DNA of 18,245 nucleotides from Candidatus Thorarchaeota archaeon (lineage in GTDB: Archaea; Asgardarchaeota; Thorarchaeia; Thorarchaeales; Thorarchaeaceae), in assembly GCA_019057475.1 (NCBI GenBank), contig DXJO01000032.1, forward strand, positions 1 through 18,245, read 5' to 3'. Numbering within the stretch: the stretch's first letter is position 1; the number at the start of each line of letters is the position of its first letter. The position numbers were made by a program, and so were the translations under genes. This document shows, piece by piece, positions 1-15,928 of the stretch. Below the pieces are notes generated by a model, which was given only the letters and a program-made list of their open reading frames with translations, did not search any database and was not told the origin of the DNA.

Positions 1-2
1 AC

Positions 3-140
3 ACATACGACGAGCTCTTTCTCAGAAGGCTCCCTGTGCTAGCAGCCTTTGCTTTTCCGGTGGCGCTGTTGATACCAACCTTACCTTTGATCCTTGAGTA
101 TTGCGGCAGTGGAAAACGAATCCATTGGCTGTGGGACTAG
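3..140 (+). CDS. possible 3' end of a membrane protein entering from the left edge
   Basis: Frame 3 is open from the window edge to TAG at 138-140 and reads TYDELFLRRLPVLAAFAFPVALLIPTLPLILEYCGSGKRIHWLWD, with one hydrophobic stretch. No other support. Confidence 0.3.
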   Translation, partial: TYDELFLRRLPVLAAFAFPVALLIPTLPLILEYCGSGKRIHWLWD

Positions 141-276
141 CTCGAGGGAACCCTGGCTCCAGACTGTCGCTGAGGTGTTCAAGGGCTTCCTTCAGAAACG
201 GAAGGCTGAGCTGTTCAGGAGGCTGGGGATGACTGGCGACCATCAGGCCTTATAATGACTGAATTCAATACTGTTC

Positions 277-567
277 CTATAAGCCATCCGATCTCAGAAG
301 AACGTACGTGAAATTTGGCCAAGAGAGAACAACAAGTTGGCCATGGGCCTTGAGTCGCTCGTACTCTTCACGAGAAACTACAATAGGCATGACTATCACA
401 ATCCAAGGAGTAACAATCTGATGGTGCGGACTAGGTTCATCATTGAAGCGAGTTTCAATAATTCTCCGTCGAAGGGCAACTGAAGGATTGGGAGGATTTG
501 TTTCTTCATTTTCATTACCGTGAAGGTAAGTGAAGATGCCAGGGCCGGCAGGATCGTCACGGCTCAG
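277..567 (-). CDS. hypothetical protein (96 aa, CTG start; absent from the ORF track)
   Basis: Open minus-strand frame MSRDDPAGPGIFTYLHGNE...IVVSREEYERLKAHGQLVVLSWPNFTYVLLRSDGL*. The CTG is preceded by AGGGGT, with a TATAA element about 22 nt upstream. It fills an otherwise empty gap and is divergent from the 709+ cluster. Confidence 0.5.
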   Translation of the reverse strand: MSRDDPAGPGIFTYLHGNENEETNPPNPSVALRRRIIETRFNDEPSPHHQIVTPWIVIVMPIVVSREEYERLKAHGQLVVLSWPNFTYVLLRSDGL

Positions 568-612
568 TGAACCCCTGAATCCGCTAGGTTATATGGTTCT
601 AAGTATAGGTAC

Positions 613-691
613 TAACGTACTTACTAAAGTAACTAAGTGTTAGGTTACATGACTCTTAGGTATAGTCTTAGTAACGTACTTACTAAAGTAA
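613..691. repeat. two identical 20-bp direct repeats TAACGTACTTACTAAAGTAA (613-632, 672-691), each containing the palindrome TTACT-AA-AGTAA; probable operator sites
   Basis: Exact repeat seen in the sequence with a 59-bp period, in an AT-rich divergent intergenic region just upstream of an RHH-like gene. Confidence 0.85.
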
Positions 692-708
692 TGCACAAGA
701 AGAAAGTA

Positions 709-844
709 ATGAACTTGAAACGATTGAATATCGTGTTTGAAGACAAGGACTTCGAGATTCTTCAACAGGCCAAGGGAGGACACTTGGACAGAGGCCCTAG
801 TCAAGTGGGCCAAGATAGTGTTGAAGGATCGTGAGTCCAAATGA
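709..844 (+). pseudogene. frameshifted ribbon-helix-helix (CopG/antitoxin-like) DNA-binding protein
   Basis: Frame 1 gives MNLKRLNIVFEDKDFEILQQAKG (alternating beta-strand then helix). Frame 2 from ~776 gives EDTWTEALVKWAKIVLKDRESK*. Its stop at 842-844 overlaps the next ATG (ATGA). The break lies in AAGGGAGGAC. Confidence 0.6.
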
Positions 845-1077
845 CCTTGATAGATGTAGACAACATCCAACACCATGAGAATACAACTGTGGTACATCTC
901 ACTACAGTACAAGCCATCGAGTTCGCGGCAGCGATAGACGAGAACGTGAAGAATGTAAAGGACGATATCAAGGGGCTAATGCTCATGACGATTCGTTTTG
1001 GCCCTGCGATTCTCGTGGGTCTAAGGAGTAAGGAGGTATATTACTTCCCGAATCCGGAGGCATCCGACAATGAGTGA
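841..1077 (+). CDS. hypothetical protein (78 aa)
   Basis: ORF with natural composition. It overlaps the reconstructed upstream stop (ATGA) and the downstream ATG at 1070. Confidence 0.6.
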   Translation: MTLIDVDNIQHHENTTVVHLTTVQAIEFAAAIDENVKNVKDDIKGLMLMTIRFGPAILVGLRSKEVYYFPNPEASDNE

Positions 1078-1147
1078 TCCAGTCACAACGATAGTGACAA
1101 TAATTCTGCTGTGGGCCTCTGCGATTTTTGTACTGTACGCGTTCTAG
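1070..1147 (+). CDS. small single-TM peptide (25 aa; 37 codons if TAG 1145-1147 is a recent nonsense mutation)
   Basis: GGAGG at 1056-1060, 9 nt before the ATG. Sequence MSDPVTTIVTIILLWASAIFVLYAF*, continuing in frame as KHATKEDKSGD* to 1183. Confidence 0.5.
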   Translation: MSDPVTTIVTIILLWASAIFVLYAF

Positions 1148-1175
1148 AAACACGCGACCAAGGAGGACAAGTCCG

Positions 1176-1379
1176 GTGACTGAAGATAAAGCTGATGGCC
1201 TCCTAGATCTTCGACGAACATCTTGGACCCTACTACGAAGTGGAATGACAATGAGAAGAGGGTTTTGTGATGGTCCTTCTCCCACGACGATACATTTCCC
1301 GATTTTTTCCGAACTCCCTCATTGTCCCACATGTTCGCGGGCCCGAGTTCGTTCCCCTGCAATAGGTAAACAGAAATGA
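1176..1379 (+). CDS. hypothetical protein (67 aa, contains CPTC)
   Basis: AGGAGG at 1161-1166, 9 nt before GTG 1176. The stop overlaps the Nmad3 ATG (ATGA). The protein itself is not recognisable and may be decayed. Confidence 0.35.
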   Translation: MTEDKADGLLDLRRTSWTLLRSGMTMRRGFCDGPSPTTIHFPIFSELPHCPTCSRARVRSPAIGKQK

Positions 1380-2161
1380 AGGAAACAGCAATGAAACTAA
1401 ATGAGCTATTGGAAAGACAAGTGGCGATAATAAACGTTGGAATGTCAACTACTAGAGGAATTCCGGGCCCATTGTTCGAGGACGGTACATTCCGATATGT
1501 GCCAATAAGAGAGCGAAAGCCTGGCAATCTTACACCAAGATACAGGGATCTAGGACTGGCTGAATGGGTTCCTGACCCAGACGGCTTTGCTCACTACGAC
1601 CCTGAATTCGAAACCATGACCTTTGGGGACTACGAGTACCGGCCGAGAGTTGCGAATGCAAAGAAACTCCAGAGCGGGGATTTCCTATTTTTCTTTGCGT
1701 CACTCTCAACAATGGAGGATAGGAGAAGAAGGGGCACTACTGGCTTCTACCTGATAGGTTACTTTGAGATTGACCGAATCATTCCATACAACGAAGCCAA
1801 GAACTCTCCACTGACTAAGAATAACGCACACATAAGGAGAACTAGAGATTCAGAGTTCTCGATCTGGAAGGGAACGTCACGGTCTGCTTTTCTTGAGTTT
1901 GCAGTACCAATCGATAGAGAGTCCACAGACCTCTGGCTCAGAACGAGCAAGGGAAAGAGGCTGCCTTGGGGGTCGGTTGACAGGAGCGGTCGCCGACGCT
2001 CTGACCTAGAAGTGATTAACTCAGCTACACGTGCCAGCCGCTTGATACGCCCAGAACATCGATGGGCATTCTGGACGCTTGTCAACGCAAAGAATCCGGG
2101 GCTTCCCATATTTTCGTATAATAGTCCCTCCCATATCAAACAAGGCAACCAAGGTGATTGA
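1376..2161 (+). CDS. Nmad3-family (nucleotide modification associated domain 3) protein
   Basis: Motif series GPLFEDGTFRYVPI, HYDPEF, TFGD, GDFLFFFASL, GFYLIGYF and NNAH, in the order typical of Nmad3. The start may instead be ATG 1391. Confidence 0.8.
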   Translation: MKETAMKLNELLERQVAIINVGMSTTRGIPGPLFEDGTFRYVPIRERKPGNLTPRYRDLGLAEWVPDPDGFAHYDPEFETMTFGDYEYRPRVANAKKLQSGDFLFFFASLSTMEDRRRRGTTGFYLIGYFEIDRIIPYNEAKNSPLTKNNAHIRRTRDSEFSIWKGTSRSAFLEFAVPIDRESTDLWLRTSKGKRLPWGSVDRSGRRRSDLEVINSATRASRLIRPEHRWAFWTLVNAKNPGLPIFSYNSPSHIKQGNQGD

Positions 2162-2162
2162 A

Positions 2163-2807
2163 ATGGCAGAGATTGATGCACCTGTGAGACAACCACCACC
2201 GGACAAGAGAGGGCGCATAGCCACAGTATGTTCTCTCTGTGGCTGGGTCGTTATACTTGCCTTCTGTTGGGCCTATAGCACGGTGCAATATTTTCCTGAT
2301 GACATCTGGTTAGAAATTGCCTACGTGGTGACGTTGCTCGTTGCGGGATTCTTTATCGGCATATCAGTCGTTAAGATATGGAGGGCAGTCTTGAATCTCT
2401 ACAGACACTGGCGAGGCGATTCTTCGCGTTGCAAGGCGGGATACAAGAGTTCGCAATCGGCGACGATGTGAGGGGTGTTTGGATTTCTCCCCTTTACTGC
2501 TCTTGCCTGAAACCTGATAACGAATTTGGTAGTACAAACTCTCATCAGCATGGTCGGTCTCCTTTTCATAGACACCGCTTTAATCGCTGGAGCAGTGATG
2601 ATAGGACAGTATACGTGGCTTGATTTGATAATGCCACTTATCGCCCTAATGTTGGCAATAATGGTGGGTCTGGCTATCCTCTTTCCACAATCCGCCATCC
2701 TGATAGCTGCCCAATCTGCGATGATGAGCACCCCATTCGGATACTTCTTGTTAGCAATCAATATAGGAGTATATCTTGCTCAACTATACGTAGATTGGTT
2801 AGACTGA
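2163..2807 (+). pseudogene. multi-pass membrane protein interrupted by two in-frame TGA codons (2469-2471, 2508-2510)
   Basis: Track ORFs 2079..2471 and 2526..2807 share a frame, and the linker reads ATM*GVFGFLPFTALA*NLITNLVVQ as continuous hydrophobic sequence. GGTGA RBS before ATG 2163. Confidence 0.65.
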
Positions 2808-2830
2808 TAAGGCCATAAAAAAGGAACCAG

Positions 2831-3424
2831 ATGAATCATATGTCAGGAACCATCCCGTACACATCCTCGGGGAAAACAGAGCGATTGATAAGAAACGTAC
2901 ACGTAGCAGTTGGACTCGCAGCAATGCTGGTCCAGCTGCTCGTTCTTGATTTCGTGACATGGTTTCACACGACGGGGATGGCCTCGCCTATCTTCATTAT
3001 CATAATAGGCATCGTATACGGTTTCCTATCAAGTGCAGAGTCTGATGAGGAATACCTACGAAACATCGTTGAACCAAGAGTTGACAAAGTCACTGAAGAG
3101 AATCGTGGCCGCTTTCTCCAGTTCAGAAGAACTACTCGACATTTGGTACTAATGCTTGGCTATATTTATGCCGCAATATTCCAGTTGCTTTGGATATCGC
3201 TCACTAATATGGGCGGCGTAGCAATGCCGGCTCTGCTTGTAGTATTTCCAACGTTTGCAACTGTGGTGGCGATGGGACCAACACCATTCCTGGTAATTTT
3301 GAGAAAGACAAGATATCAAGACATCAAACACTTATTGGATGCTGAGCGCGAAGATCTGAGATTCCGACTGCGGACAGGGAACCTAGGTCAAACCACACAT
3401 TCCGCAGGCTATGGAGCAGCGTAA
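2831..3424 (+). CDS. hypothetical membrane protein (about 4 TM)
   Basis: 197-aa ORF with two pairs of hydrophobic helices separated by a charged loop. Confidence 0.75.
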   Translation: MNHMSGTIPYTSSGKTERLIRNVHVAVGLAAMLVQLLVLDFVTWFHTTGMASPIFIIIIGIVYGFLSSAESDEEYLRNIVEPRVDKVTEENRGRFLQFRRTTRHLVLMLGYIYAAIFQLLWISLTNMGGVAMPALLVVFPTFATVVAMGPTPFLVILRKTRYQDIKHLLDAEREDLRFRLRTGNLGQTTHSAGYGAA

Positions 3425-3480
3425 TTATCGAGAATGTACCACGCTGCTTGGCCAGGTCACCCTCTGCGTATTACAAGCAA

Positions 3481-3651
3481 TTATCTCGCATGTTCGGGGA
3501 TGTTCAATCGGCAAGAGAAGGCCGCTGCCTTCTTGAACAAGGTTTTGCGGAGATGACGGGGCATCCTCGCATCCAAATCTTTGTGGAGCTTTGTGACCAT
3601 CTTGCCGTTGGACGGCGTGCCCTCTGCCTGTTCGTTATTTCTTTGTGTCAT
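3481..3651 (-). CDS. possible small hypothetical protein (56 aa)
   Basis: ATG 3651 overlaps the end of the upstream minus-strand gene. Sequence MTQRNNEQAEGTPSNGKMVTKLHKDLDARMPRHLRKTLFKKAAAFSCRLNIPEHAR*. No family recognised. Confidence 0.3.
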   Translation of the reverse strand: MTQRNNEQAEGTPSNGKMVTKLHKDLDARMPRHLRKTLFKKAAAFSCRLNIPEHAR

Positions 3652-3985
3652 ACAAATCACGTCGTTCTAGGAGGAGGTATGACGCGATTAGCAGACCACC
3701 AAAGATGCACATAACGACCAATAGCGCCGTTTGGATGTATCTCGCCCACCGCTCGTTGAGCTTCTTTTTCTTCTTCGCTACCTCCAACCATAAGGACGCT
3801 GAAATAGCTAGAGAGCTAAACAAGTACCATGTCGTGACGAAAGCGGGTTGGTAACTATATGCGCCTGAGAGAGCATAGAGAGCGTATATGAACGAAAAGC
3901 AAGTCACTACTATCGCAGCTACAAGCATCATCTTTGCGCTAACAACGGTTTCTTCTTCGGTCATCGCAGCGACATCCCCTGTCAT
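3635..3985 (-). CDS. hypothetical membrane protein (about 3 TM)
   Basis: Three hydrophobic segments with a KKKKK loop. ATG 3985 lies 2 nt after the upstream stop; ATG 3964 is an alternative start. Confidence 0.7.
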   Translation of the reverse strand: MTGDVAAMTEEETVVSAKMMLVAAIVVTCFSFIYALYALSGAYSYQPAFVTTWYLFSSLAISASLWLEVAKKKKKLNERWARYIQTALLVVMCIFGGLLIASYLLLERRDLYDTKK

Positions 3986-3987
3986 AG

Positions 3988-4614
3988 CTAGAGTGGAGCC
4001 CCGCAGTTCGTACAATTCCGGTTGACCTGATCGTTCTTGCGGCCACAGTTAGGGCAGATGACCAAAATTACTTCCTGAATGCGCACTGGAGCTGCTCTTC
4101 GGCGATAGGCATACACTATGATGAGGATTGCCGCCACACCACCGACTCCCGCTACTGCTGCGACTACGGTCCCGAACGCCATCTGGTTCTCTCTCTCTGC
4201 GATTGCTTCGTGATTGTGACTCCCTTCAACGTGCTTGGATGTAAACCAAGAGTAGGTGTTGGAATATACAACGTACCATGTGTCATCATACGGAATCGTG
4301 TAGGTCCATGTGCGCCCTCCAGTCAGCTGATACTCCAAGGCTGCGGTGTAGGACTCAGACCCCGAAAATCTCCCATAGTTCTCGGAGTCAAAGACATAGA
4401 AGTTGATGTCGTTCGTTACTCCGCCCACGGTTGCAGTGGACGAGCCTGATACCACATCGTCTTGAGAGCAGACGAATCTGAAATGCTGGAACGTTCCCGC
4501 TGGAACCTCAATCTCGAAGTCTGTTGATTGAGCCCAGACTTGTGCTAGAAGGGCCATCGTCAGCATGAAAAGTGCCGCCCAGCAGACAACTACCGCCCTA
4601 TACGTCCTGTTCAT
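3988..4614 (-). CDS. type-I membrane protein: signal peptide, emp24/p24 GOLD-like domain, TM helix, C-terminal zinc ribbon
   Basis: N-terminal hydrophobic signal. IEVPAG..F, DINFYVFD and WYVVYSNTYSWFTSKHV resemble p24 GOLD motifs. The TM is followed by RRR, then CPNCG...CTNCG. Confidence 0.75.
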   Translation of the reverse strand: MNRTYRAVVVCWAALFMLTMALLAQVWAQSTDFEIEVPAGTFQHFRFVCSQDDVVSGSSTATVGGVTNDINFYVFDSENYGRFSGSESYTAALEYQLTGGRTWTYTIPYDDTWYVVYSNTYSWFTSKHVEGSHNHEAIAERENQMAFGTVVAAVAGVGGVAAILIIVYAYRRRAAPVRIQEVILVICPNCGRKNDQVNRNCTNCGAPL

Positions 4615-5089
4615 TGTAGCCCACCAAGCCAGCCCTTCATCACGCGGGACTCCGATTTCAGTATTCCGGTACTAAGACCAGAGTGACCACTCATTCAACC
4701 AAGCCTAGGTTTGGGGGGCGTTTTCAAGGCACAGAACATATCTGGTTCAAATGGGTCGCACAGTGAGGACAGTACGAAGCCCTCACCTGACTTGATGTGC
4801 GCACAGCACTCCTCAGCTCGGTTCCCTGTGCATGGGCTGTGAGCCCTGATTGCTTTCCAAAGAATAGTCGAGGTCAAATGGCGTAAGAGAAGAAGATAGC
4901 GCAAGACGAAGATTGTGCTCAACCCTGAAGAGAGAGAGCTTTGGCAGTGGGCAACAAAAAAGATTGACGATTAAGACTTCAGAGCGTAGGTCGCATCGAC
5001 CGCGCGGAGTTGAAAAAACAAAATGAATGAAACCGATAACGAAAGAAAATATGTGGGAGGATGAGCTAATCACAACCTCCCTTGATTGA

Positions 5090-6037
5090 TCACCAGAACT
5101 CCTCGGAAACAACTCTTGATCTAGATTCAAGGTCCCTGTAAAGCACTGCTGCAAAGACATAGTTAATTGCGCTGAAGAGGAGCGAACTGATGAGTACCGA
5201 AACGTACAACACGAGGGCTAGGTCATAGAAGACAAGAGGAACTAGCAGCCATCCAGGCACTAATGCGATGACTCCCACGGCAATGCCCAGTAGAATCTGG
5301 CCGCCGAAGATGTGCAAGAAGTTACCTGTTGTCAGCTCCCATGCCCTCTTCAGTGAATCGATTGCACCCAAGTCCTCAGCGATAACGACTGCGCTAGTAG
5401 GACTCAGTCGTATACCGAAGTAGAGAGCCACGATCAATCCAATCAAGATGAGAGGAAAGGCCATCATTATCATGTTTATGGCGTCCATTGAAGGGTAGTA
5501 GGGATCAAAGGCTGCCAAAGCACCAAAAAGGAAATACATACCAGGGGCCAACGCTCCGGTGACAATCAATGCAAGAAGGAATTGCGCTACAATCATAGTA
5601 GATAGCCTACTGAACGCAAACGAGAGGCTTGTTCCCACATCAGCTTGGTGAAAGCCATAGTCATCAAGTGCGAATTTGATGCCGCCTCCAGCAATCACAG
5701 CATTTACAACCATACCCACAATAGTTAGCACAATTGCGAGGATGATAAATCCAATACCCGTGACTATTTCGGAGGTGGCAAATCCAAGCAACGTCATGAT
5801 AATGTCTGCGCCTACGTAGACCAATAGGTCAAATCCAAGCACACCGTAAAGTGCGCAGAACACTGCGAGTTGAAGCAGATTGAAGGCCACTCCAAGAAGA
5901 CCGACAATCAGAATGTAGCTCGGTAGCTTCCGCACCCATACTTTCAACGTTCTCGTTACAAGGTCCAATGCACTCACTGTGAAATCCTGTTCAGGGGGTG
6001 CAGAGGGCTCAAGTCCTACTCCATCGTCAATTCCCAT
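5090..6037 (-). CDS. multi-pass membrane protein (glycerophosphodiester phosphodiesterase membrane-domain/YciC-like family)
   Basis: About 6 TM helices, with typical motifs AVVIAEDLGAIDSLKRAWELTTGNF and AVLYRDL. GGAGG RBS before ATG 6037 and TTATAA about 40 nt upstream, so the track start at 6130 is probably too long. Confidence 0.8.
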   Translation of the reverse strand: MGIDDGVGLEPSAPPEQDFTVSALDLVTRTLKVWVRKLPSYILIVGLLGVAFNLLQLAVFCALYGVLGFDLLVYVGADIIMTLLGFATSEIVTGIGFIILAIVLTIVGMVVNAVIAGGGIKFALDDYGFHQADVGTSLSFAFSRLSTMIVAQFLLALIVTGALAPGMYFLFGALAAFDPYYPSMDAINMIMMAFPLILIGLIVALYFGIRLSPTSAVVIAEDLGAIDSLKRAWELTTGNFLHIFGGQILLGIAVGVIALVPGWLLVPLVFYDLALVLYVSVLISSLLFSAINYVFAAVLYRDLESRSRVVSEEFW

Positions 6038-6130
6038 CAATAGTCCTCCTAGGTGATTTCGATATCGAGGTGTAATCTTATAATATCTCCGTACTGAATA
6101 GGGCAGATGGGCGGAGTACGCGACAAGCAA

Positions 6131-6385
6131 TCATGCAGGTTTCGGCCGGGCGTCGAAGATCTCCATGAATCTCATGCCTCCAGCCTTTTCAAGAAGTTCC
6201 TCGAAGGCAATGATGACCACTTTCGGAGTGATTTCTGTGCTCTTCTTCGTGATGGAGACGACCTCGTGAACCAATGAGGGGTGGTCTGAATTGACTGCAG
6301 CCTTTGGAGCTACATAGAGGTTTAGCACGTCCATGCTGTACGAATCATTCATGTCCTCCTTTGCCACCTCTATCTGGATGAGTTT
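6131..6385 (-). pseudogene. probable 3' remnant of a phenylacetate-CoA ligase (PaaK/F390 synthetase-like) gene, C-terminal domain only
   Basis: The in-frame extension gives IQIEVAKEDMNDSYSMDVLNLYVAP...ITPKVVII...GMRFMEIFDARP, which resembles the PaaK-like C-terminal domain. The frame is closed by TGA just upstream of 6403, and no adenylation domain is present. Confidence 0.4.
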
Positions 6386-6568
6386 GTGCGCTGTATCACG
6401 CTCTCAAAAGATAAGAGAATGAAGTGAGCGGGAAACAAGAGTCTCGCGATTGGTTTCAGGGCCAGAAGGAAGATTGAACTTTTTATGCCCTCTTATGCTC
6501 GTCCGGTTATCTGTAGACACAAACTCCTATCAAAAACAACGAGTTCTTATCCCCTGCTTGATGATTGA

Positions 6569-7480
6569 GATACAGACAACTTTTCCAGTGGTGAACAGAC
6601 TTATTCTACAACTCTTACGAGTCTTCGAGACTTCTACTACATGCACAAGGTGAAGCGCGTACAGGAGGTCCTAGAAATTAGTGGTCAGAATGAAACGAAC
6701 AGGTTGATCAATCTGTGCGAGAGAATATTGAAGATTCAGGGCACTTCCGTGTCAAGAGAGGAATTCGGGGTTGTTAGTTCTCCCAAGGGCACATTCTATG
6801 GTGATGTTACGTTATCAGACCTCTCGGGCAAGCAACTCAACTGCTCAGGTGCTGGAGAATACGGTTGGTTCATCTCCTCGAAGCCTTTTGATGTAAAAAT
6901 CCATGACATCAACATTGATGCTGCAATCTTCGTTGAGAAGGAAGCCATGGCAAGAAACCTTATCGAACTCAAACTGCCTGAAACTCTAAAGGTCGGGGTA
7001 GGTTCGCTATTTGGACAGCCAGGGAGGAACATGAGAGCATGGATTAGACGCCTCGCGGACAATGGTGTGCCAATCCTCGTACTTGTTGACATGTCTCCAT
7101 GGTCACTGCGCATTTTCTCCACAATCAAGAGCAACTCTATCGAGCTCTCAAACATCCGGGGTCTCGCAACCCCCTCTGCGAAGCTACTCGGTCTGACGAC
7201 AACAGATTTTTGGCGCAAGAACGGCATGCTAACTGCAATTGAGCACTCATTGGAAAACATGTCCAAGTCAGACCTGAAGTGCGCTCAACAGAACCGCAAG
7301 ATACCGGCAATCAATGAAGACCCAATCCTTCGAAGGGAGAACGAAGCACTCCTCAAGAAACGCAAGAAAGGAGAACTTGAAGCATTCAAGGCATTTGGAC
7401 TGCCTCTCACTAGTCTCAGGAAGCTCTACGTTGATTACATCAAGCGTAAGTCACGTGGCTTCAATGTGAAACTGATATAA
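6569..7480 (+). CDS. divergent DNA topoisomerase VI subunit A / Spo11-like protein, 5' end disrupted
   Basis: TSLRDFYY (catalytic Tyr motif) lies in frame immediately before track ATG 6641. Also present: REEFGVVSSPKG, FVEKEA (TOPRIM Glu), GQPGRNMR, LVDMSPW (DxD position) and KGELEA. There is an in-frame TGA at 6566-6568 and no standard start codon between it and the YY. Confidence 0.85.
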   Translation, partial: DTDNFSSGEQTYSTTLTSLRDFYYMHKVKRVQEVLEISGQNETNRLINLCERILKIQGTSVSREEFGVVSSPKGTFYGDVTLSDLSGKQLNCSGAGEYGWFISSKPFDVKIHDINIDAAIFVEKEAMARNLIELKLPETLKVGVGSLFGQPGRNMRAWIRRLADNGVPILVLVDMSPWSLRIFSTIKSNSIELSNIRGLATPSAKLLGLTTTDFWRKNGMLTAIEHSLENMSKSDLKCAQQNRKIPAINEDPILRRENEALLKKRKKGELEAFKAFGLPLTSLRKLYVDYIKRKSRGFNVKLI

Positions 7481-7516
7481 AGCTCGAATGCCACGGGGGG
7501 AGTGAGGAGAGCCTTC

Positions 7517-8188
7517 ATGAGTGAAGAAAAGGAGAATATGCTAAACCTCTTCGAGGAGTTCAAAACCACCCTTGTCGACCTTATTGATGACAGGGATAAG
7601 CTTGCCAGCGAAATCGAGGAACTACGAACTGCAAGAAGAGAAGCCGATGAAAAGGCGTGGGCTGCGGACGAGAAGGTCAAGAATTTGGAATCAGACCTTG
7701 AAGCCGCTGTAACGAAGGGCGATAAGGCAACTTCAAAGGTCAGCTCGCTCAAAGAGCAAGTTAAGGAGTTGAAGAGCAAGCTTAGAGAAGCAGAAGCCTC
7801 AAGCACTGATGCCATAGATGCCATCGTGAAAGAGCGCGACGAGCTTAGGACGGAGATGAATGAGATAACCTCGAAGCTCTCGCGTGTATCTGAGCTCTAT
7901 CGGGAAACTTCTGCTGAAAAGGAAGCGCTCCAAGAGAAGGTTGATGTCAGTGATCTGCTTGGAATCTACATAGTGCTTCTTGAAACTGTCTTCTATGGAA
8001 AGCCTCATGCAAGAATATTGTATACACTACATGACATCAAGAAGCCAATCACAAGGAAAAACCTTGCTGATAGTTCAGGCATAATGCCAGCTCAAGTCCT
8101 CAAGGCGATTCACGATCTGGCGAATGAAAACCTGGTTTCATACAACGAGGACACCCAACAAGTTACTCTGAAGAAGGAGATCATGTAG
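7517..8188 (+). CDS. coiled-coil protein with C-terminal winged-helix domain
   Basis: About 140 aa of E/K/L heptads, then PHARILYTLH..ITRKNLADSSGIMPAQVLKAIHDLANENLVSY (wHTH pattern). GAGGAG RBS before ATG 7517. Confidence 0.8.
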   Translation: MSEEKENMLNLFEEFKTTLVDLIDDRDKLASEIEELRTARREADEKAWAADEKVKNLESDLEAAVTKGDKATSKVSSLKEQVKELKSKLREAEASSTDAIDAIVKERDELRTEMNEITSKLSRVSELYRETSAEKEALQEKVDVSDLLGIYIVLLETVFYGKPHARILYTLHDIKKPITRKNLADSSGIMPAQVLKAIHDLANENLVSYNEDTQQVTLKKEIM

Positions 8189-8218
8189 ATCAGCGAATCA
8201 TTTGCCCCGTAATCAAAT

Positions 8219-9241
8219 GTGCCAAAGAGAGATGATGTGTTGTCTAGAAAAGTGAATTATAGTCCAGCGCTTCGAAAGCATGTCAGGAAGTACAATCTGA
8301 ATGACAAGCTCCAATCTATTATGAACTTGCTTGGCAAAGACGCACAAGGAGTTATCGACTGGGCTCAGGAAGAAGCCAAACTCAGAATCAAGAAGGGTGA
8401 GGAGAAAGAGACCAATCTAGCGAAGGCTGTATTCCAGTTGATAGCTAATGAAGCAGCAATTAGGTTAGTGAAACAGAACCACTCACGAGGGCGGATGACG
8501 ATAAAGAGTGAAGTTAAGCGCCGGACCGGAATCAAAGCAGAGATGCCTCTCCTCTACCAAGAAGCAGGCCTCCGTCATCCTCAGGAGGCAAGGAATCTTC
8601 GGCACAATCTATTCCACGAAGCATTCATGGCATTGATAACGCATCTCTTTCCGGATGTCACAACCAATGTCCCCGTGACTGGAGAGGGCCTAACCCCTGA
8701 TTTGATGGTCAATCATAAGAATCCCAACTGGACCCTCTCTGTCGAATACAAGGGATACCGCGCGATAACCCTTCTCGGCGAATCAGAGGTCCTTAAGGGA
8801 ATGAGGTATCAAGCGGCGTATGGCTCGTCCTGGCTAGTCACCAGCACGACCAAGACAGTAAGAGATCGCTATGAAGGTACTCTTGAATCTGAGAAGCTAA
8901 TAAGGCAGGGCATCGAGCGGCTAGAGAGGATTGTTAAAAGAAGAGGGTATACTGGGGAGCAGAAAGAGAACAGAGGCATTTCAAGGAAGGGGATAACACA
9001 TCTTGAAAAGCTAAGAGGAGCCAACCTCAAATGCAAGCTAATCTCCGCAGAAGAACTCCTTGACTCTTGCAGAGAGGGGAAGCCAAGAAAGGCACTCGCC
9101 ATATCCAGTGGTATGGAGTTCATCGAGATGCTTCGAGAGGCCGGCTTCGAGAGCCATGCAGACAATGTGTTGAGGATAATGAAGACCCCCACGAATCTTC
9201 TTCATAGTGACACTGTAACGTCTGTGCGACTCATAGGCTAG
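8219..9241 (+). CDS. putative PD-(D/E)XK (restriction-endonuclease-like) nuclease with helical N-terminal region
   Basis: 340-aa basic ORF. Helix LFHEAF, then NVPV...TPDLMV...LSVEYKG, matching the PD-x(n)-ExK core. Confidence 0.6.
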   Translation: MPKRDDVLSRKVNYSPALRKHVRKYNLNDKLQSIMNLLGKDAQGVIDWAQEEAKLRIKKGEEKETNLAKAVFQLIANEAAIRLVKQNHSRGRMTIKSEVKRRTGIKAEMPLLYQEAGLRHPQEARNLRHNLFHEAFMALITHLFPDVTTNVPVTGEGLTPDLMVNHKNPNWTLSVEYKGYRAITLLGESEVLKGMRYQAAYGSSWLVTSTTKTVRDRYEGTLESEKLIRQGIERLERIVKRRGYTGEQKENRGISRKGITHLEKLRGANLKCKLISAEELLDSCREGKPRKALAISSGMEFIEMLREAGFESHADNVLRIMKTPTNLLHSDTVTSVRLIG

Positions 9242-9349
9242 AAGGCCATAATCTCAAACAGGGCGTTCCTTCTACCAACCTTTATCAATAATGAGTAACT
9301 TGTTGTTCTGTTCTCGAATAGTAAATCGGAATAATGAGAGGGTAATGCA

Positions 9350-9742
9350 TTGCTAAATATGCCAGACGAGGATGCGACCGAACAACTCAAGATGATCCTG
9401 CGCGATCTCAGTAGCAGGTCGCCGATTCTGGGAGCAGCGATATTCTCTGTGGAGGGCTTACCACTTGTTAGCTACTTCCACGCTGGCATTGAGGTAGCAT
9501 CTATTGCCGCAATGGTAGCGAGCATTCAGTCAGTTGGGGAGCTGGCTGTCAAAGAGCTTCGCCAAGGGGACCTGAAATCGATTATCATTCAAGGCACACT
9601 AGGTACAACAGTAGTTATCTCGATTCCAGATTCCTACTTGCTTGCGGTGACAGCGCCAGAGAACGTCAAGCTCGGACTTATTTTTAACGATGCAAAGGTG
9701 TACGCCAAAAAGATGACAGGGATTCTGCGCAATCTAAGGTGA
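9350..9742 (+). CDS. Roadblock/LC7 (MglB/LAMTOR2-like) domain protein
   Basis: ILGAAIFSVEGLPL, IAAMVASIQSVGE, ELRQGDLKSIIIQGTLG, LLAVTAPENVKLGLIF. The size of about 130 aa fits. ATG 9359 is an alternative start. Confidence 0.92.
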   Translation: MLNMPDEDATEQLKMILRDLSSRSPILGAAIFSVEGLPLVSYFHAGIEVASIAAMVASIQSVGELAVKELRQGDLKSIIIQGTLGTTVVISIPDSYLLAVTAPENVKLGLIFNDAKVYAKKMTGILRNLR

Positions 9743-10579
9743 GTGGCCTCCACTATGGGGCGGGCTTATCCTTTTACTCATCACCCCTGTTGGTCACGTA
9801 ATCGCGATGGGCTATGGGCCAGGATACACCTGCCGGTAGCACACTCCTGTAACGTGAAATGCGGATACTGCGATCATCAATTGGACGCCTCCGGCCATAT
9901 GCCAGTGCCTGGCCGATCAAGAAGGGTGATGACTCCAACTCAAGCAATCAAAGTAACTCGTGATGAGCTTGGGAAAGACCCGAATCTACGCATTGTCGCG
10001 ATTTCGGGGCCAGGCGAACCACTTGCGTGTCCGCAAACATTCAAGACTCTGCAAGGGATTAGAGCGTTGAGTGCTAACATAGATTTCTGCTTGAGCACTA
10101 ACGGAGTGCTGCTGGAAGAGAAGACAAAGCAACTGATCGAGCTCGGGGCAAGGACAATTAGTGTGACAATGAGCACCGTATCCCCTGAAACCGCCTCGCA
10201 AATCTATGAATGGGCGATGATTGATGGCAAGCGGCTAACAGGACCTGAAATGGGAGAGAAGGTCATCGATGCACAGCTCAGGGGCATCTCTTCTGCTACC
10301 AAGTCAGGTGTGTTTGTTAAGGTGAACTCGATACTCATTCCCGAAATGAATGGAGAACAAATGGAAAATCTGGCAAGAGCCCTGAGAGATGCTGGTGCAC
10401 GTCTTCAAAATATCGTCCCACTCATACCATTTGACAACATGGTAAATGAGCGACCACCTACACAGAATGAACTTCAAGATGCAAGAAACAGAGCTTCTCG
10501 CTTTATGGAGCAGTTTTACCACTGCAGACAATGCAGAAGCGATGTTGTAGGGATACCCGGCGCAGACCGTATCCTTTAG
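9743..10579 (+). CDS. NifB-like radical SAM protein (stand-alone SAM domain, divergent)
   Basis: HPC, RIHLPVA, CNVKCGYC, SGPGEPLA, CLSTNG, KVNSILIP, NIVPLIP and HCRQCRSDVVG. The NifB ExRP and TxTxN motifs are not conserved. Confidence 0.88.
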   Translation: MASTMGRAYPFTHHPCWSRNRDGLWARIHLPVAHSCNVKCGYCDHQLDASGHMPVPGRSRRVMTPTQAIKVTRDELGKDPNLRIVAISGPGEPLACPQTFKTLQGIRALSANIDFCLSTNGVLLEEKTKQLIELGARTISVTMSTVSPETASQIYEWAMIDGKRLTGPEMGEKVIDAQLRGISSATKSGVFVKVNSILIPEMNGEQMENLARALRDAGARLQNIVPLIPFDNMVNERPPTQNELQDARNRASRFMEQFYHCRQCRSDVVGIPGADRIL

Positions 10580-11403
10580 CTAGATGTTTTCTGGGCCAAG
10601 CACCCCACTTCAACTAGCTTGTTAATCAGGAACCACAAAGCTTGCTGATCATAGGGCAATTCTTCAATCACTTGGGTTATTGTCATTACGCCGTCAAAAT
10701 GGTTCAGCATGTCATCAACCGGTTTCCCATACATTGCTTTGATACTATTCAGAGTTATATCCGGACATTCTTGCGTCACCAGAATGTCATTGTCGGTGAG
10801 TCGCCTTTTGAAATCACACCACTCGTACTTGTGCAGCATCGAAAACAATGCTAAGACTTGTTTCTCAGGCAAGTCAATCAGGTCCATTATCTCTGCCACA
10901 GTTCGTTTGCCGTTAATGAAAGCCTCCAACTGCTCTAGCTTGCTGTCGACAGACCCGACTCTAAAAGGGATTATGAGGCCCTTCCTATTCTTGAAAGGTA
11001 CGAGGTCTATGTCAATCGCAAAGAACGGAAACTCCATTAGTATCTCAAGGGAGAACTCGCGGAATCGTCGAACATCGCCTTCAAACTTCTTAAGCTTAGC
11101 ACCATGCTTCTCTTCCACATTCTCAAGGATTCTGTTCAATCGTTCACGGTATGGCGCTTCACTAGGCACGGGATCAACAACAAGCAGGACAAGGACGGTT
11201 TCTCCAACCTCAATTAGGATATCATAAGCCGCTTTCCGAATTGTCCTAATGGGGGTTTTGGCGAAGATTATCACTGCAGTGACAAAGCCCGCAATCAGGT
11301 CAGGGTCAATGGACATCTCTTCATAGGGCAGACTGAGTATTGATTCGCCCCCTTCTAGGCGAATCAGTGAGATGTACCGCACCTTGGATACGTCGAGTGC
11401 CAT
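10576..11403 (-). CDS. longin-like domain + two winged-helix repeats (NPRL2-like architecture), paralog A
   Basis: N-terminal IDPDLIAGFVTAVIIF...FEGDVRRFREF (Asgard longin-type signature). Repeats FINGKRTVAEI and HFDGVMTITQV, each followed by a helix and L...(G/W) strand. GGAAGGG before the ATG. Confidence 0.75.
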   Translation of the reverse strand: MALDVSKVRYISLIRLEGGESILSLPYEEMSIDPDLIAGFVTAVIIFAKTPIRTIRKAAYDILIEVGETVLVLLVVDPVPSEAPYRERLNRILENVEEKHGAKLKKFEGDVRRFREFSLEILMEFPFFAIDIDLVPFKNRKGLIIPFRVGSVDSKLEQLEAFINGKRTVAEIMDLIDLPEKQVLALFSMLHKYEWCDFKRRLTDNDILVTQECPDITLNSIKAMYGKPVDDMLNHFDGVMTITQVIEELPYDQQALWFLINKLVEVGCLAQKTSS

Positions 11404-11453
11404 GCTACCAACCCTTCCTAGTCACTATGTAACTCCCACTGCAGGACCCGCAT

Positions 11454-11472
11454 TTCACACATTCCATGTGAA
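11454..11472. promoter_or_regulatory. inverted repeat TTCACA-N7-TGTGAA, possible operator or hairpin
   Basis: Perfect 6-bp arms between the two longin genes, immediately downstream (minus strand) of an ATTATTAT element. Confidence 0.3.
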
Positions 11473-11513
11473 GGGCACCATAATAATCTCTTGGCCTCTG
11501 AGCTAAGCACGAA

Positions 11514-12386
11514 TTACTCAGTGGACCCGCCTCCTTCGCTCGACTGTTCGCGGTAACCCAGCACACCTGCATCAATCAGGTTCTTGGCAATTGTAATAAG
11601 AACCTCAATATCGAACGGAACTAGCTCACACACTTGCTCAAGTGTTCTCGTTCCATCGCACATCTCCGCGAAATCATCCAGTTGGTCGCCGTATACACCA
11701 ATAAGACGCTTTGGGGTATCGGTCAGTTTTACAAGCACTGTGTCCTTGTTTGCACGACGCGAAAGCGTAATCCATTTGAACCGGTCCAGCATGGAGAATA
11801 TTGCCGTTAACTCGGCTTCAGAGTAGCCGGAAGATTTAACGATCTCCCTAATGGTTCGTTTCCCATTGATATAGCCAACAACGGTTTGTATCTTCTTGTC
11901 TGTTTCACCCACACTCCAAGGGATTGCTACCTGGCAGTTAGGCGTCACATCCGACTTCTTAATCAGTTCAGGAACGAGCTGCCAATCAAACCGTCTATAT
12001 GGGAACACACCAAGGATGTCAATCCCGAATTCTCTGAACGGGCGAATGTCACCCCTCCATAGGGTGAGCTGCAGTTCATACTTGGCCTCGAAATCTGATA
12101 TAATTCCCTTTAACGCTTCACGATATGGTTCGTCATCCTCCACTTTATCGATAATGAGCAACCCTACAACATGATCGCCTTCCTCTATCACAACCACATA
12201 GCCTTCCTTGATGAATGTTCGAAGCTGCTGATTCTCAAAAATTACAATTGCTAATACAAAGCTGGCAACAAGATCAGGATCGACACTCATCTCTCTAAAC
12301 GTAATGCCTAAAACTGGCTCACCGCCGTCTTTTCTAACTAATGAAACGTAGCGAACAATTTCCTCGTTCAAGGGCATGTGGCTCAA
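11514..12386 (-). CDS. longin-like domain + two winged-helix repeats (NPRL2-like architecture), paralog B
   Basis: VDPDLVASFVLAIVIF...WRGDIRPFREF, with repeats YINGKRTIREI and MCDGTRTLEQV. Colinear with 10576..11403. AACCTTTTAT TATA-like element about 25 nt upstream. Confidence 0.75.
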   Translation of the reverse strand: MSHMPLNEEIVRYVSLVRKDGGEPVLGITFREMSVDPDLVASFVLAIVIFENQQLRTFIKEGYVVVIEEGDHVVGLLIIDKVEDDEPYREALKGIISDFEAKYELQLTLWRGDIRPFREFGIDILGVFPYRRFDWQLVPELIKKSDVTPNCQVAIPWSVGETDKKIQTVVGYINGKRTIREIVKSSGYSEAELTAIFSMLDRFKWITLSRRANKDTVLVKLTDTPKRLIGVYGDQLDDFAEMCDGTRTLEQVCELVPFDIEVLITIAKNLIDAGVLGYREQSSEGGGSTE

Positions 12387-14476: not shown

Positions 14477-15928
14477 TTAGCTCAAATCTATCTTTTCACG
14501 TGTCAATACGAGCTTCTCACCATCGACGATCTTAGCAATGCCCAATTGTTGGAAGTCTTCAGCCCATTGCATAACTATAGCTGGGGCTACACCCATGGAG
14601 CGGGCAATCTCTCTTATCGACATCTCAATGTTGTCTTCCACCATGAGGAACGCTTTAGTCTTCTCTGTTCGGCCCATTAAGCCAAGGTAACCACGCAAAG
14701 CCTCTTCAGTGAGCTGTAGCTTCACCTGCGCCGCCTTGTAATCATTGGTGGTCCTCTCATGACTGGCTGAAATCCGATCAAGTTCAGTCTTCACACGCTC
14801 AAGCTCTCTTGCACTTTCACCCGACTCGGAGGAACGAAGGCGTGCTCGTAATTCATCAACTCCAGCAAGCCGTTCATTTGCCTTTTTCAGCTCATCCTCG
14901 AAGTGTCTGATGTTGCCTCCAAGGTCCTCAATCAGTAGGTCGTTCTTATTCTTGGCATCGCGAAGCTGACGGTTCTCGATCTGGGTAGCTTGAAGTTCCT
15001 GAGAGGCGTCTTCCAATCGGTCATTAAGCAAGTCATGAATTGTTTCCATGGACTTGATGTGCTTACGAAGCTCAGCGACCGTTTCCGCTTCAGCTGCTGG
15101 CGATGCTCGAAGGCTAGCCACGGTTTCCTCTAGACTCTCGTTCCGTGCCTTCATTCCAGCAAGTTCGCTCCGCAATGACTCAATGTCATTCTCTCGATTT
15201 TGTATCTTCTCGGTTGCCACGGTTAAGTTACGCTCTAGTTCCTTAACATGGCGAGAAAGTGCCTTCAATTGTTCTTCTACTTCCTTCGGAATGGCCACCT
15301 TTGGTTTCATGGTCAGCTCCGTCGATAGGAATTCCACCTCTGTGGAGAGTCGCTGTGTGAAATCATCAATGCTGGCTTTCAAGGTTGTGAGTTCATCGTG
15401 GGTTTCATTCGCGGCATCCTTGAGAGTGTCGGTCAACACTCGAATCTTTTCAAGAATCGGTGCCGACATTCCAGAGGTCAGGGTTTCCTCAATCGCTGCG
15501 AACTCTTCCTCAATGATGGGTGTCACCGCGGTGTCAAAATAGACGTCCTGGAGGTTGGTCTTCGCACGCCTTTTGCTCTTCGCGATAATCGTGCTCCGGA
15601 GATTCACAAGGTTGCCCTTCAAGCCGACCAGAAAGGAAAGCATTACGGGTATGAGATCACGCTCAATATGATCAATCCCATCGTTGATCAAGTTGAGATT
15701 TCTTTCCACGTGACGAGTACTCTCTCGGAAACGGCCAATGCTCTTGTCCATCTCAATGCGTCGCCGAACTTGGTCCGCAGATTCCACCCTGAGAACATCC
15801 TTTGTCATGCGACCCGATTCGACTAGCTCCTTCTTCATGGCTTCATCGATACCGAGCTCTGCGAGCATCTTGTCAACTACTGAATCTCTGCCTTTTTCTG
15901 GAATTTTCTCTTCGGGTTTCTTGCTCAT
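14477..15928 (-). CDS. long coiled-coil protein with C-terminal winged-helix domain
   Basis: 483 aa, helical N-terminus and about 200 aa of heptads. The C-terminus KAFLMVEDNIEMSIREIARSMGVAPAIVMQWAEDFQQLGIAKI is wHTH-like. GAGG RBS. No Walker A motif. Confidence 0.8.
   Translation of the reverse strand: MSKKPEEKIPEKGRDSVVDKMLAELGIDEAMKKELVESGRMTKDVLRVESADQVRRRIEMDKSIGRFRESTRHVERNLNLINDGIDHIERDLIPVMLSFLVGLKGNLVNLRSTIIAKSKRRAKTNLQDVYFDTAVTPIIEEEFAAIEETLTSGMSAPILEKIRVLTDTLKDAANETHDELTTLKASIDDFTQRLSTEVEFLSTELTMKPKVAIPKEVEEQLKALSRHVKELERNLTVATEKIQNRENDIESLRSELAGMKARNESLEETVASLRASPAAEAETVAELRKHIKSMETIHDLLNDRLEDASQELQATQIENRQLRDAKNKNDLLIEDLGGNIRHFEDELKKANERLAGVDELRARLRSSESGESARELERVKTELDRISASHERTTNDYKAAQVKLQLTEEALRGYLGLMGRTEKTKAFLMVEDNIEMSIREIARSMGVAPAIVMQWAEDFQQLGIAKIVDGEKLVLTREKIDLS

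Follow-up and report, generated by a model that had tools for sequence, protein, structure and literature searches.

The 18,245-nt stretch of DNA analysed here (the window) belongs to a Thorarchaeota genome with a completeness of 96.4%. It contains a Roadblock gene followed closely by a gene for a radical SAM enzyme that resembles NifB, the enzyme that builds the eight-iron carbide cluster of nitrogenase. The features of this region are listed below; residues follow the numbering of the 274-aa protein, counts refer to 114 homologues of the Thorarchaeota family (about 50% mutual identity), and Mth denotes the M. thermautotrophicus NifB numbering of PMC8179604, transferred via an alignment to the solved structure.

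8219..9241, + strand: PD-(D/E)xK-nuclease-like upstream gene, syntenic in 36/36 loci
9274..9288, + strand: BRE/TATA-like motif, consensus CCAAGCTTTATC, upstream of the Roadblock gene; putative promoter
9350-9742, + strand: Roadblock/LC7 gene, 130 aa, TTG start, alternative ATG at 9359; PF03259, E 2.9e-9
9755..10579, + strand: NifB-like radical SAM gene, single domain, 274 aa; alternative GTG start at 9743 giving 278 aa
9788..9829, + strand: predicted K-cluster ligands Cys12 (in HPC; Mth C18) and His25 (Mth H31), invariant, 114/114
9848..9871, + strand: Cx3Cx2C radical SAM cluster motif with C32, C36 and C39, 114/114
9890..9913, + strand: altered gating loop SGHMPVPG, with Gly47 at the Mth C52 site and His48 at the Mth E53 site
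10028..10030, + strand: Cys92, gained in the clade without the loop Cys
10088..10090, + strand: predicted K-cluster ligand Cys112 (in CLSTNG; Mth C115), 114/114
10319..10327, + strand: K189-V-N191 (Mth K192/N194), 114/114
10523..10534, + strand: C-terminal CxxC, predicted K2 ligands C257/C260 (Mth C260/C263), 114/114
10576..12386, - strand: longin-like paralogue pair, 275 and 290 aa, convergent; resemblance only, no Pfam match

Reading of the open reading frames places the Roadblock stop codon TGA at 9740-9742, with an in-frame GTG (9743) directly 3' of it, and ends the NifB-like frame with TAG at 10577-10579. An in-frame ATG at 9755 would leave a gap of 12 nt, and the NifB-like proteins from the genus of the window in the database are 274 aa long, in agreement with this start. 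As judged from the sequence, the tight linkage of the two genes holds, whereas the zero gap of the original prediction hinges on the start codon that is picked and would become 12 nt with ATG 9755. Downstream, the first longin-like gene is convergent and overlaps the NifB-like stop by 4 nt. The naming of the upstream gene as PD-(D/E)xK-like, which stems from PDDEXK/Mrr_cat cluster matches at 0.85-0.90, should be regarded as a lead only.

The named homologues and related loci of the NifB-like protein retrieved in the database search were from Thorarchaeota; the search by locus yielded four close loci, besides a SPASM enzyme that is unrelated. In the profile search its best family was TIGR01290 NifB (E 2.5e-66), with 224 bits against a curated cut-off of 343.65, a value to be read with a 441-position model (matched at 10-280) that is far longer than the single-domain protein, and with a cut-off reached by only 1 control genome though the controls include two methanogens. 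Membership in the radical SAM superfamily is evident from PF04055 (57 bits, cut-off 29.5), the Cx3Cx2C motif and a partial TIM barrel fold, and the Roadblock protein scored 37 bits with PF03259 (cut-off 23). The best solved relatives of the enzyme are archaeal NifB structures (PDB 6Y1X with E 4e-60, the next with E 2e-51). An AlphaFold model (mean pLDDT 86.5, with low confidence at residues 44-54) gave TM-scores of 0.84-0.87 to 6Y1X, 7BI7 and 7JMB, and in a fold search NifB was the sole close match (E 1e-23 to 1e-27, TM 0.76-0.87), the next fold having an E value of 1e-10. The gene is intact and under purifying selection, with a dN/dS of 0.19-0.21 against two congeners that is comparable to that of its neighbours (0.13-0.17 for the Roadblock gene). 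Two genomes (G206, G152) contain a split copy, which could be an assembly error or a sign of decay.

All of the motifs quoted in the original prediction (HPC, RIHLPV, CNVKCGYC, SGHMPVPG, SGPG, CLSTNG, SVTMS and HCRQCRSD) are indeed present, and their meaning can be judged from the enzyme of M. thermautotrophicus, in which C18, H31, C115, C260 and C263 are cluster ligands, K192 and N194 position the bridging sulfide that is the proposed methyl acceptor, and T141 lies at the SAM ribose (PMC8179604). The counterparts of the five K-cluster ligands and of the K/N pair are invariant in all 114 homologues, and the T141 site is Thr in the window's protein and Thr or Ser in all others. The structural feature of NifB that is missing is the C52/E53 gating loop, which reads G47/H48 here. 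The loop Glu position is occupied by His throughout (114/114), directly after the loop Cys position, an order also seen for C52 and E53 in the solved enzyme, and the loop Cys is kept in 103 of the 114 sequences and replaced by Gly, Ala or Ser in the other 11. In the genus of the window, 10 sequences have Gly or Ala in place of the loop Cys, and each of them has gained Cys92; all 10 Gly/Ala47 sequences thus carry Cys92 and all 103 Cys47 sequences carry Asn92, and loss and gain were probably a single evolutionary event. In authentic NifB, exchange of C52 or E53 leaves little or no NifB-co formation while SAM cleavage persists (PMC8179604), and this is the chief reason to suspect altered chemistry in the Thorarchaeota enzyme.

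The sequence fingerprint of NifB consists of six motifs (PMC5715403), four of which the protein lacks. HPC is present in 114/114 homologues. ExRP, which is found in 93 of 129 non-Thorarchaeota homologues, occurs in 0/114, with His instead; AGPG is SGPG in the window's protein and in 104/114 (AGPG in 9/114); TxTxN is SVTMS, with Ser at the Asn position (N143) in 98/114; and Cx2CRxDAxG is CRQCRSDVVG, with CxxCRxD in 114/114, DAxG in 2/114 and DVVG in 104. The last of these departures had not been listed in the original prediction, nor had the absence of an N-terminal His (Mth H24) that is common in other NifB and mostly absent across the family. Because of the four failed motifs the protein is not classed as NifB, but on structural criteria it would work like NifB. 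It should be noted that homologues with other divergent loops (HSYRPA; QVSFPG together with SGPG; FVNRPG) have NifH-like and component-1 genes as operon partners, so that motif drift alone is no proof of a new product. The subfamily may, as proposed, make a different product; the altered gating loop is an argument in favour, but the residues that hold the cluster and the bridging sulfide are invariant, and the loop-divergent homologues in nitrogenase-like operons weaken any conclusion drawn from motifs.

In phylogenetic analysis, 16 Thorarchaeota sequences fell on one side of a branch with a support of 100/100 and a stem of 0.41 changes per site. This clade lies outside the canonical, ExRP-bearing NifB group, the canonical rows being defined by the ExRP motif and by position in the first tree, with no biochemically proven NifB among them. 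No supported sister group of the clade was recovered either in the larger quick tree or in the second tree, from which the long-branch rows P0207, P0208 and P0187 were omitted. Among the deep-branching homologues, P0146 and P0207 are found in nitrogenase-like operons and P0131 beside methanogenesis genes.

The NifB-like gene was found in 64/77 genomes of the Thorarchaeota family of the window, covering all 16 sampled genera; among the 224 Asgard genomes searched outside the family, only 6 had it. In 12 of the 13 negative family genomes the family-specific Roadblock orthologue (50-93% identity) is likewise missing, and in the 13th the start of the NifB-like gene runs into an N gap, so that these absences look like assembly gaps. 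No assembled family genome has the Roadblock orthologue without the NifB-like gene.

A NifB is expected to serve a client, and the known L-cluster clients are NifDK/EN, NFL and McrC/Mmp7. The MCR activation complex is the second described use of the NifB cluster, with McrC and Mmp7 binding L-type clusters (PMC12176620, PMC13474568); NifB is essential in methanogens, including nitrogenase-free ones (10.1101/2023.10.20.563283), and its occurrence in Asgard archaea has been mentioned (PMC12176620). Every one of these clients is missing from the Thorarchaeota family genomes searched. PF00148 proteins (NifDK, NifEN, CfbD, NFL) were found in 0/77 family genomes, including that of the window, and NifH (TIGR01287) in 0/81, with working controls in both searches; McrC (PF04609) and Mmp7 (TIGR03274) were each found in 0/81. 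Mmp17 was not found in the genome of the window, and the 18,245 nt themselves contain no nif genes. The original prediction of a NifB-like enzyme apart from nif genes, belonging to a non-nitrogenase subfamily, is thus borne out by the genomes and by the position of the clade in the tree.

Several candidates were inspected and set aside. NifX-like domains are present in 255/301 Asgard genomes regardless of NifB; of those inspected, two lie beside a MinD-type ATPase with ferredoxin and one is fused to a cation-efflux transporter. Two weak PF00142 matches were rejected as NifH, the one inspected being of the ParA/MinD type, and an HGD-D pair with an activator, a conceivable double-cubane client, resembles on inspection an ordinary 2-hydroxyacyl-CoA dehydratase. 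In the literature searched, in which subscription titles were mostly beyond reach, nothing was found that treats NifB in Thorarchaeota or that joins Asgard, roadblock, longin and radical SAM, nor was a family-wide case of NifB without both nif and MCR activation proteins found. NifB without nif is already known from methanogens; the new element, as far as the literature searched goes, is the absence of both client types across a lineage.

The Roadblock gene directly precedes the NifB-like gene in 36/36 long loci, with gaps of -8 to +15 nt in 34 of them; the adjacency seen in the window is therefore family-wide. The BRE/TATA-like motif at 9274..9288 is the sole + strand site scoring >8 in 6000-11600, and no such motif lies between the two genes. 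TTTAT occurs on the sense strand of 33/36 orthologous intergenic regions, which come from related genomes and hence are not independent, compared with a mean of 6 and a maximum of 12 in 200 shuffles and with 1 on the reverse strand. The tight gap, the motif upstream but not inside the pair and the convergent longin-like gene at its end make a two-gene transcript likely.

However, the pair is embedded centrally in some 15 conserved genes, and the inner junctions of this block are equally conserved. This block runs from an M50 peptidase gene, topoisomerase VI B and A, a coiled-coil/wHTH gene, the PD-(D/E)xK-like gene and the Roadblock and NifB-like genes to two longin-like genes, DUF2797, AmmeMemoRadiSam, a coiled-coil gene and a transglutaminase-like gene. 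The coiled-coil/wHTH and PD-(D/E)xK genes are conserved in 36/36 loci and the first longin-like gene in 35/36, and thus adjacency to Roadblock is not specific. The only genome of the sister family (G108, 96% complete) has the whole block in gap-free sequence: its Roadblock gene (37% identity) lies some 50 bp from the one longin-like gene, and no NifB-like gene was found anywhere in this genome. The Roadblock-longin arrangement hence exists without the enzyme, and either the Thorarchaeota family acquired the NifB-like gene by insertion behind the Roadblock promoter or G108 has lost it. None of the six other Asgard NifB loci has a Roadblock neighbour related to the Thorarchaeota one. Co-transcription is therefore the sole support for a functional link between the two genes.

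The longin-like/wHTH gene is duplicated in the family (35 and 33 of 36 loci) and single in G108, which places this duplication on the branch that also carries the NifB-like gene. Two coiled-coil proteins (7502-8188 and 14477-15928) that flank the block have winged-helix domains at the C-terminus and are conserved across the order. The topoisomerase VI A gene is split, with residues 96-381 encoded at 6620-7480 of the window and residues 1-99 on another contig (G000:C47:22051-22347) that also carries top6B and M50 peptidase genes; two further top6A-like and top6B-like matches exist in the genome (C21, C39). Positions 1-6600 of the window contain unrelated genes, including an Nmad3 domain at 1376-2161 and several membrane proteins, which together with the split gene suggests an element inserted into top6A, a rearrangement or a misassembly.

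The best explanation of these observations, which we hold with about even confidence, is that the enzyme is an orphan eight-iron cluster maturase that works like NifB for a client yet to be named. It would bind the SAM-activating [4Fe-4S] cluster and two further [4Fe-4S] units, which would be held by Cys12, His25, Cys112, Cys257 and Cys260 and fused to an eight-iron K-type cluster. The SAM methyl group would be moved to a bridging sulfide held by K189/N191, 5'-deoxyadenosyl radical chemistry would follow, and the product might be an L-type or related 8Fe cluster, handed on to a client outside both the nitrogenase family and the MCR activation complex. His48 would probably replace the loop Glu as temporary K1 ligand. 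Co-transcription would most likely result from the position of the gene in a Roadblock unit that exists without the enzyme in the sister family, rather than from joint action. The eight cluster ligands and the K192/N194 equivalents, invariant in 114 homologues, are what cluster building predicts, and a maturase role is not at odds with a lost ExRP, given the loop-divergent homologues in NifH-like/component-1 operons. There is precedent for NifB outside nitrogenase in methanogens (10.1101/2023.10.20.563283; PMC12176620). Against the maturase count the lack of a client among about 80 family genomes, the absence of both loop Cys and loop Glu in the window's protein, the four missing fingerprint motifs, the split copies in two genomes, and the long stem of the clade, which would be expected after a functional change.

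The same points could also be read as signs of a repurposed radical SAM enzyme, in which a permanent or sacrificial auxiliary Fe-S cluster would assist radical chemistry or sulfur/methylthio transfer on another substrate and no carbide cluster would be released. The lack of a known cluster client, the retention of the gene in a genus that has lost the loop Cys, and a set of residues that suggest a new surface or pocket (the clade-invariant Y5-P6-F7, R17, L20 and W21 near the N-terminus, and the changes of N143 to S, R47 to H and A to S in AGPG) would fit such an enzyme. We rank it second, as less likely than the maturase, because the five K-cluster ligands and the K/N pair are kept and, by inference from PMC8179604, would take up the substrate site of the barrel, and because there is no gene-specific neighbour linked to a substrate. 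Decay of an ancestral MCR or nitrogenase-like pathway, leaving a relic or a catalytically dead Fe-S storage protein, would likewise account for the missing client, for the two split copies and for a median identity across loci of 52%, which is below that of Roadblock (63%) and of the first longin-like protein (66%); a dN/dS of about 0.2, ten invariant catalytic or ligand residues and retention in all 16 sampled genera make it very unlikely. That the protein is an ordinary nitrogenase NifB with its nif genes elsewhere, as the title 'nitrogen fixation protein NifB' of some database records would imply, is hardly credible given the PF00148 and NifH results and the branching of the clade outside canonical NifB.

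The original prediction had also offered an Fe-S/SAM-status sensor linked to Roadblock/longin signalling; spelled out, the enzyme would sense Fe-S, SAM or redox state, or act as a switch, bind to the Roadblock dimer and give input to Roadblock-longin-small GTPase signalling. The family-wide adjacency, the common upstream motif, the convergence on two longin-like genes and the absence of an assembled Roadblock orthologue without the NifB-like gene inside the family would all be in line with it, and co-transcription survives as its likely part. The sensor itself is unlikely, since the neighbours on both sides are equally conserved, G108 keeps Roadblock beside a longin-like gene without NifB, and the other Asgard NifB loci lack the neighbour. 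A combined version, in which a NifB-type eight-iron (possibly carbide) cluster would be read out via the Roadblock and longin-like proteins and so inform an Asgard small-GTPase module of Fe-S/SAM status, is slightly less likely again. Thus, the orphan status of the enzyme is solid, and the signalling claim is weak.

In the literature searched, only two uses of the NifB eight-iron carbide cluster are described, in nitrogenase-family enzymes and in the MCR activation complex, and a 2026 review (PMC13474568) has posed archaeal targets 'of unknown identity' as an open question. A gene that is retained without known cluster users in the genomes searched points to an unnamed customer or to altered chemistry, and an Asgard family with a gene under selection and neither client is a clean system for a third client or a changed reaction, making the question of other users of NifB chemistry testable. 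The natural variants, i.e. Glu to His family-wide and loss of the loop Cys in one genus, probe the proposed gating role of C52/E53. It follows also that 'nifB' annotations in Thorarchaeota genomes are no evidence of nitrogen fixation.

Among known systems, the single-domain archaeal NifB of Methanothrix thermoacetophila (PDB 6Y1X) and Methanothermobacter thermautotrophicus (PDB 7BI7/7JMB) resemble the Thorarchaeota enzyme in size, architecture and fold (TM 0.84-0.87, 34-35% structural identity), in the radical SAM triad, in the C18/H31/C115/C260/C263 set, and in K192/N194 and T141. They differ in the loop, where C52/E53 are G/H in the window's protein and C/H in most family members, in AGPG (here SGPG), N143 (here Ser), DAxG (here DVVG) and H24 (absent here), and in their hosts, as the host here has neither MCR activation proteins nor nitrogenase. 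The methanogen NifB that serves MCR activation (PMC12176620; 10.1101/2023.10.20.563283) is similar in its nitrogenase-free genomes and in a gene away from nif, but its client is known and present, whereas McrC and Mmp7 are found in 0/81 genomes of the Thorarchaeota family.

Ca. Borrarchaeum-type NifB-like proteins (G041, G058), so called after a cluster member, share the orphan status and a His in the loop (YHAFRP), PF00148 and McrC not being found in these two genomes (both about 100% complete), but they form a separate branch of the tree, keep AGPG and TxTxN and have no Roadblock neighbour. Their genes (L041:7638-8441, L043:7005-7808) lie beside an integrase or LRR gene. In other Asgard families, a NifH-like gene and a single component-1 gene form a compact operon together with a nifB whose loop is non-canonical (L042:5140-8060, L045:2417-5198, L044:938-3975); by its gene content, this operon would encode a nitrogenase-like system of one subunit that has a NifB of its own. 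Two further clusters (L106, L107-L108) place nitrogenase-like H/D/K genes and a divergent nifB amid several radical SAM enzymes and methyltransferases, in L106 also with an acyl carrier protein, and resemble natural-product clusters. These NFL-operon homologues (L042, L044, L045, L106-L108) are close to the Thorarchaeota enzyme in having non-ExRP loops, some with His and some with SGPG, and in branching deep in the tree, but they adjoin NifH-like and component-1 genes, of which the Thorarchaeota clade has none.
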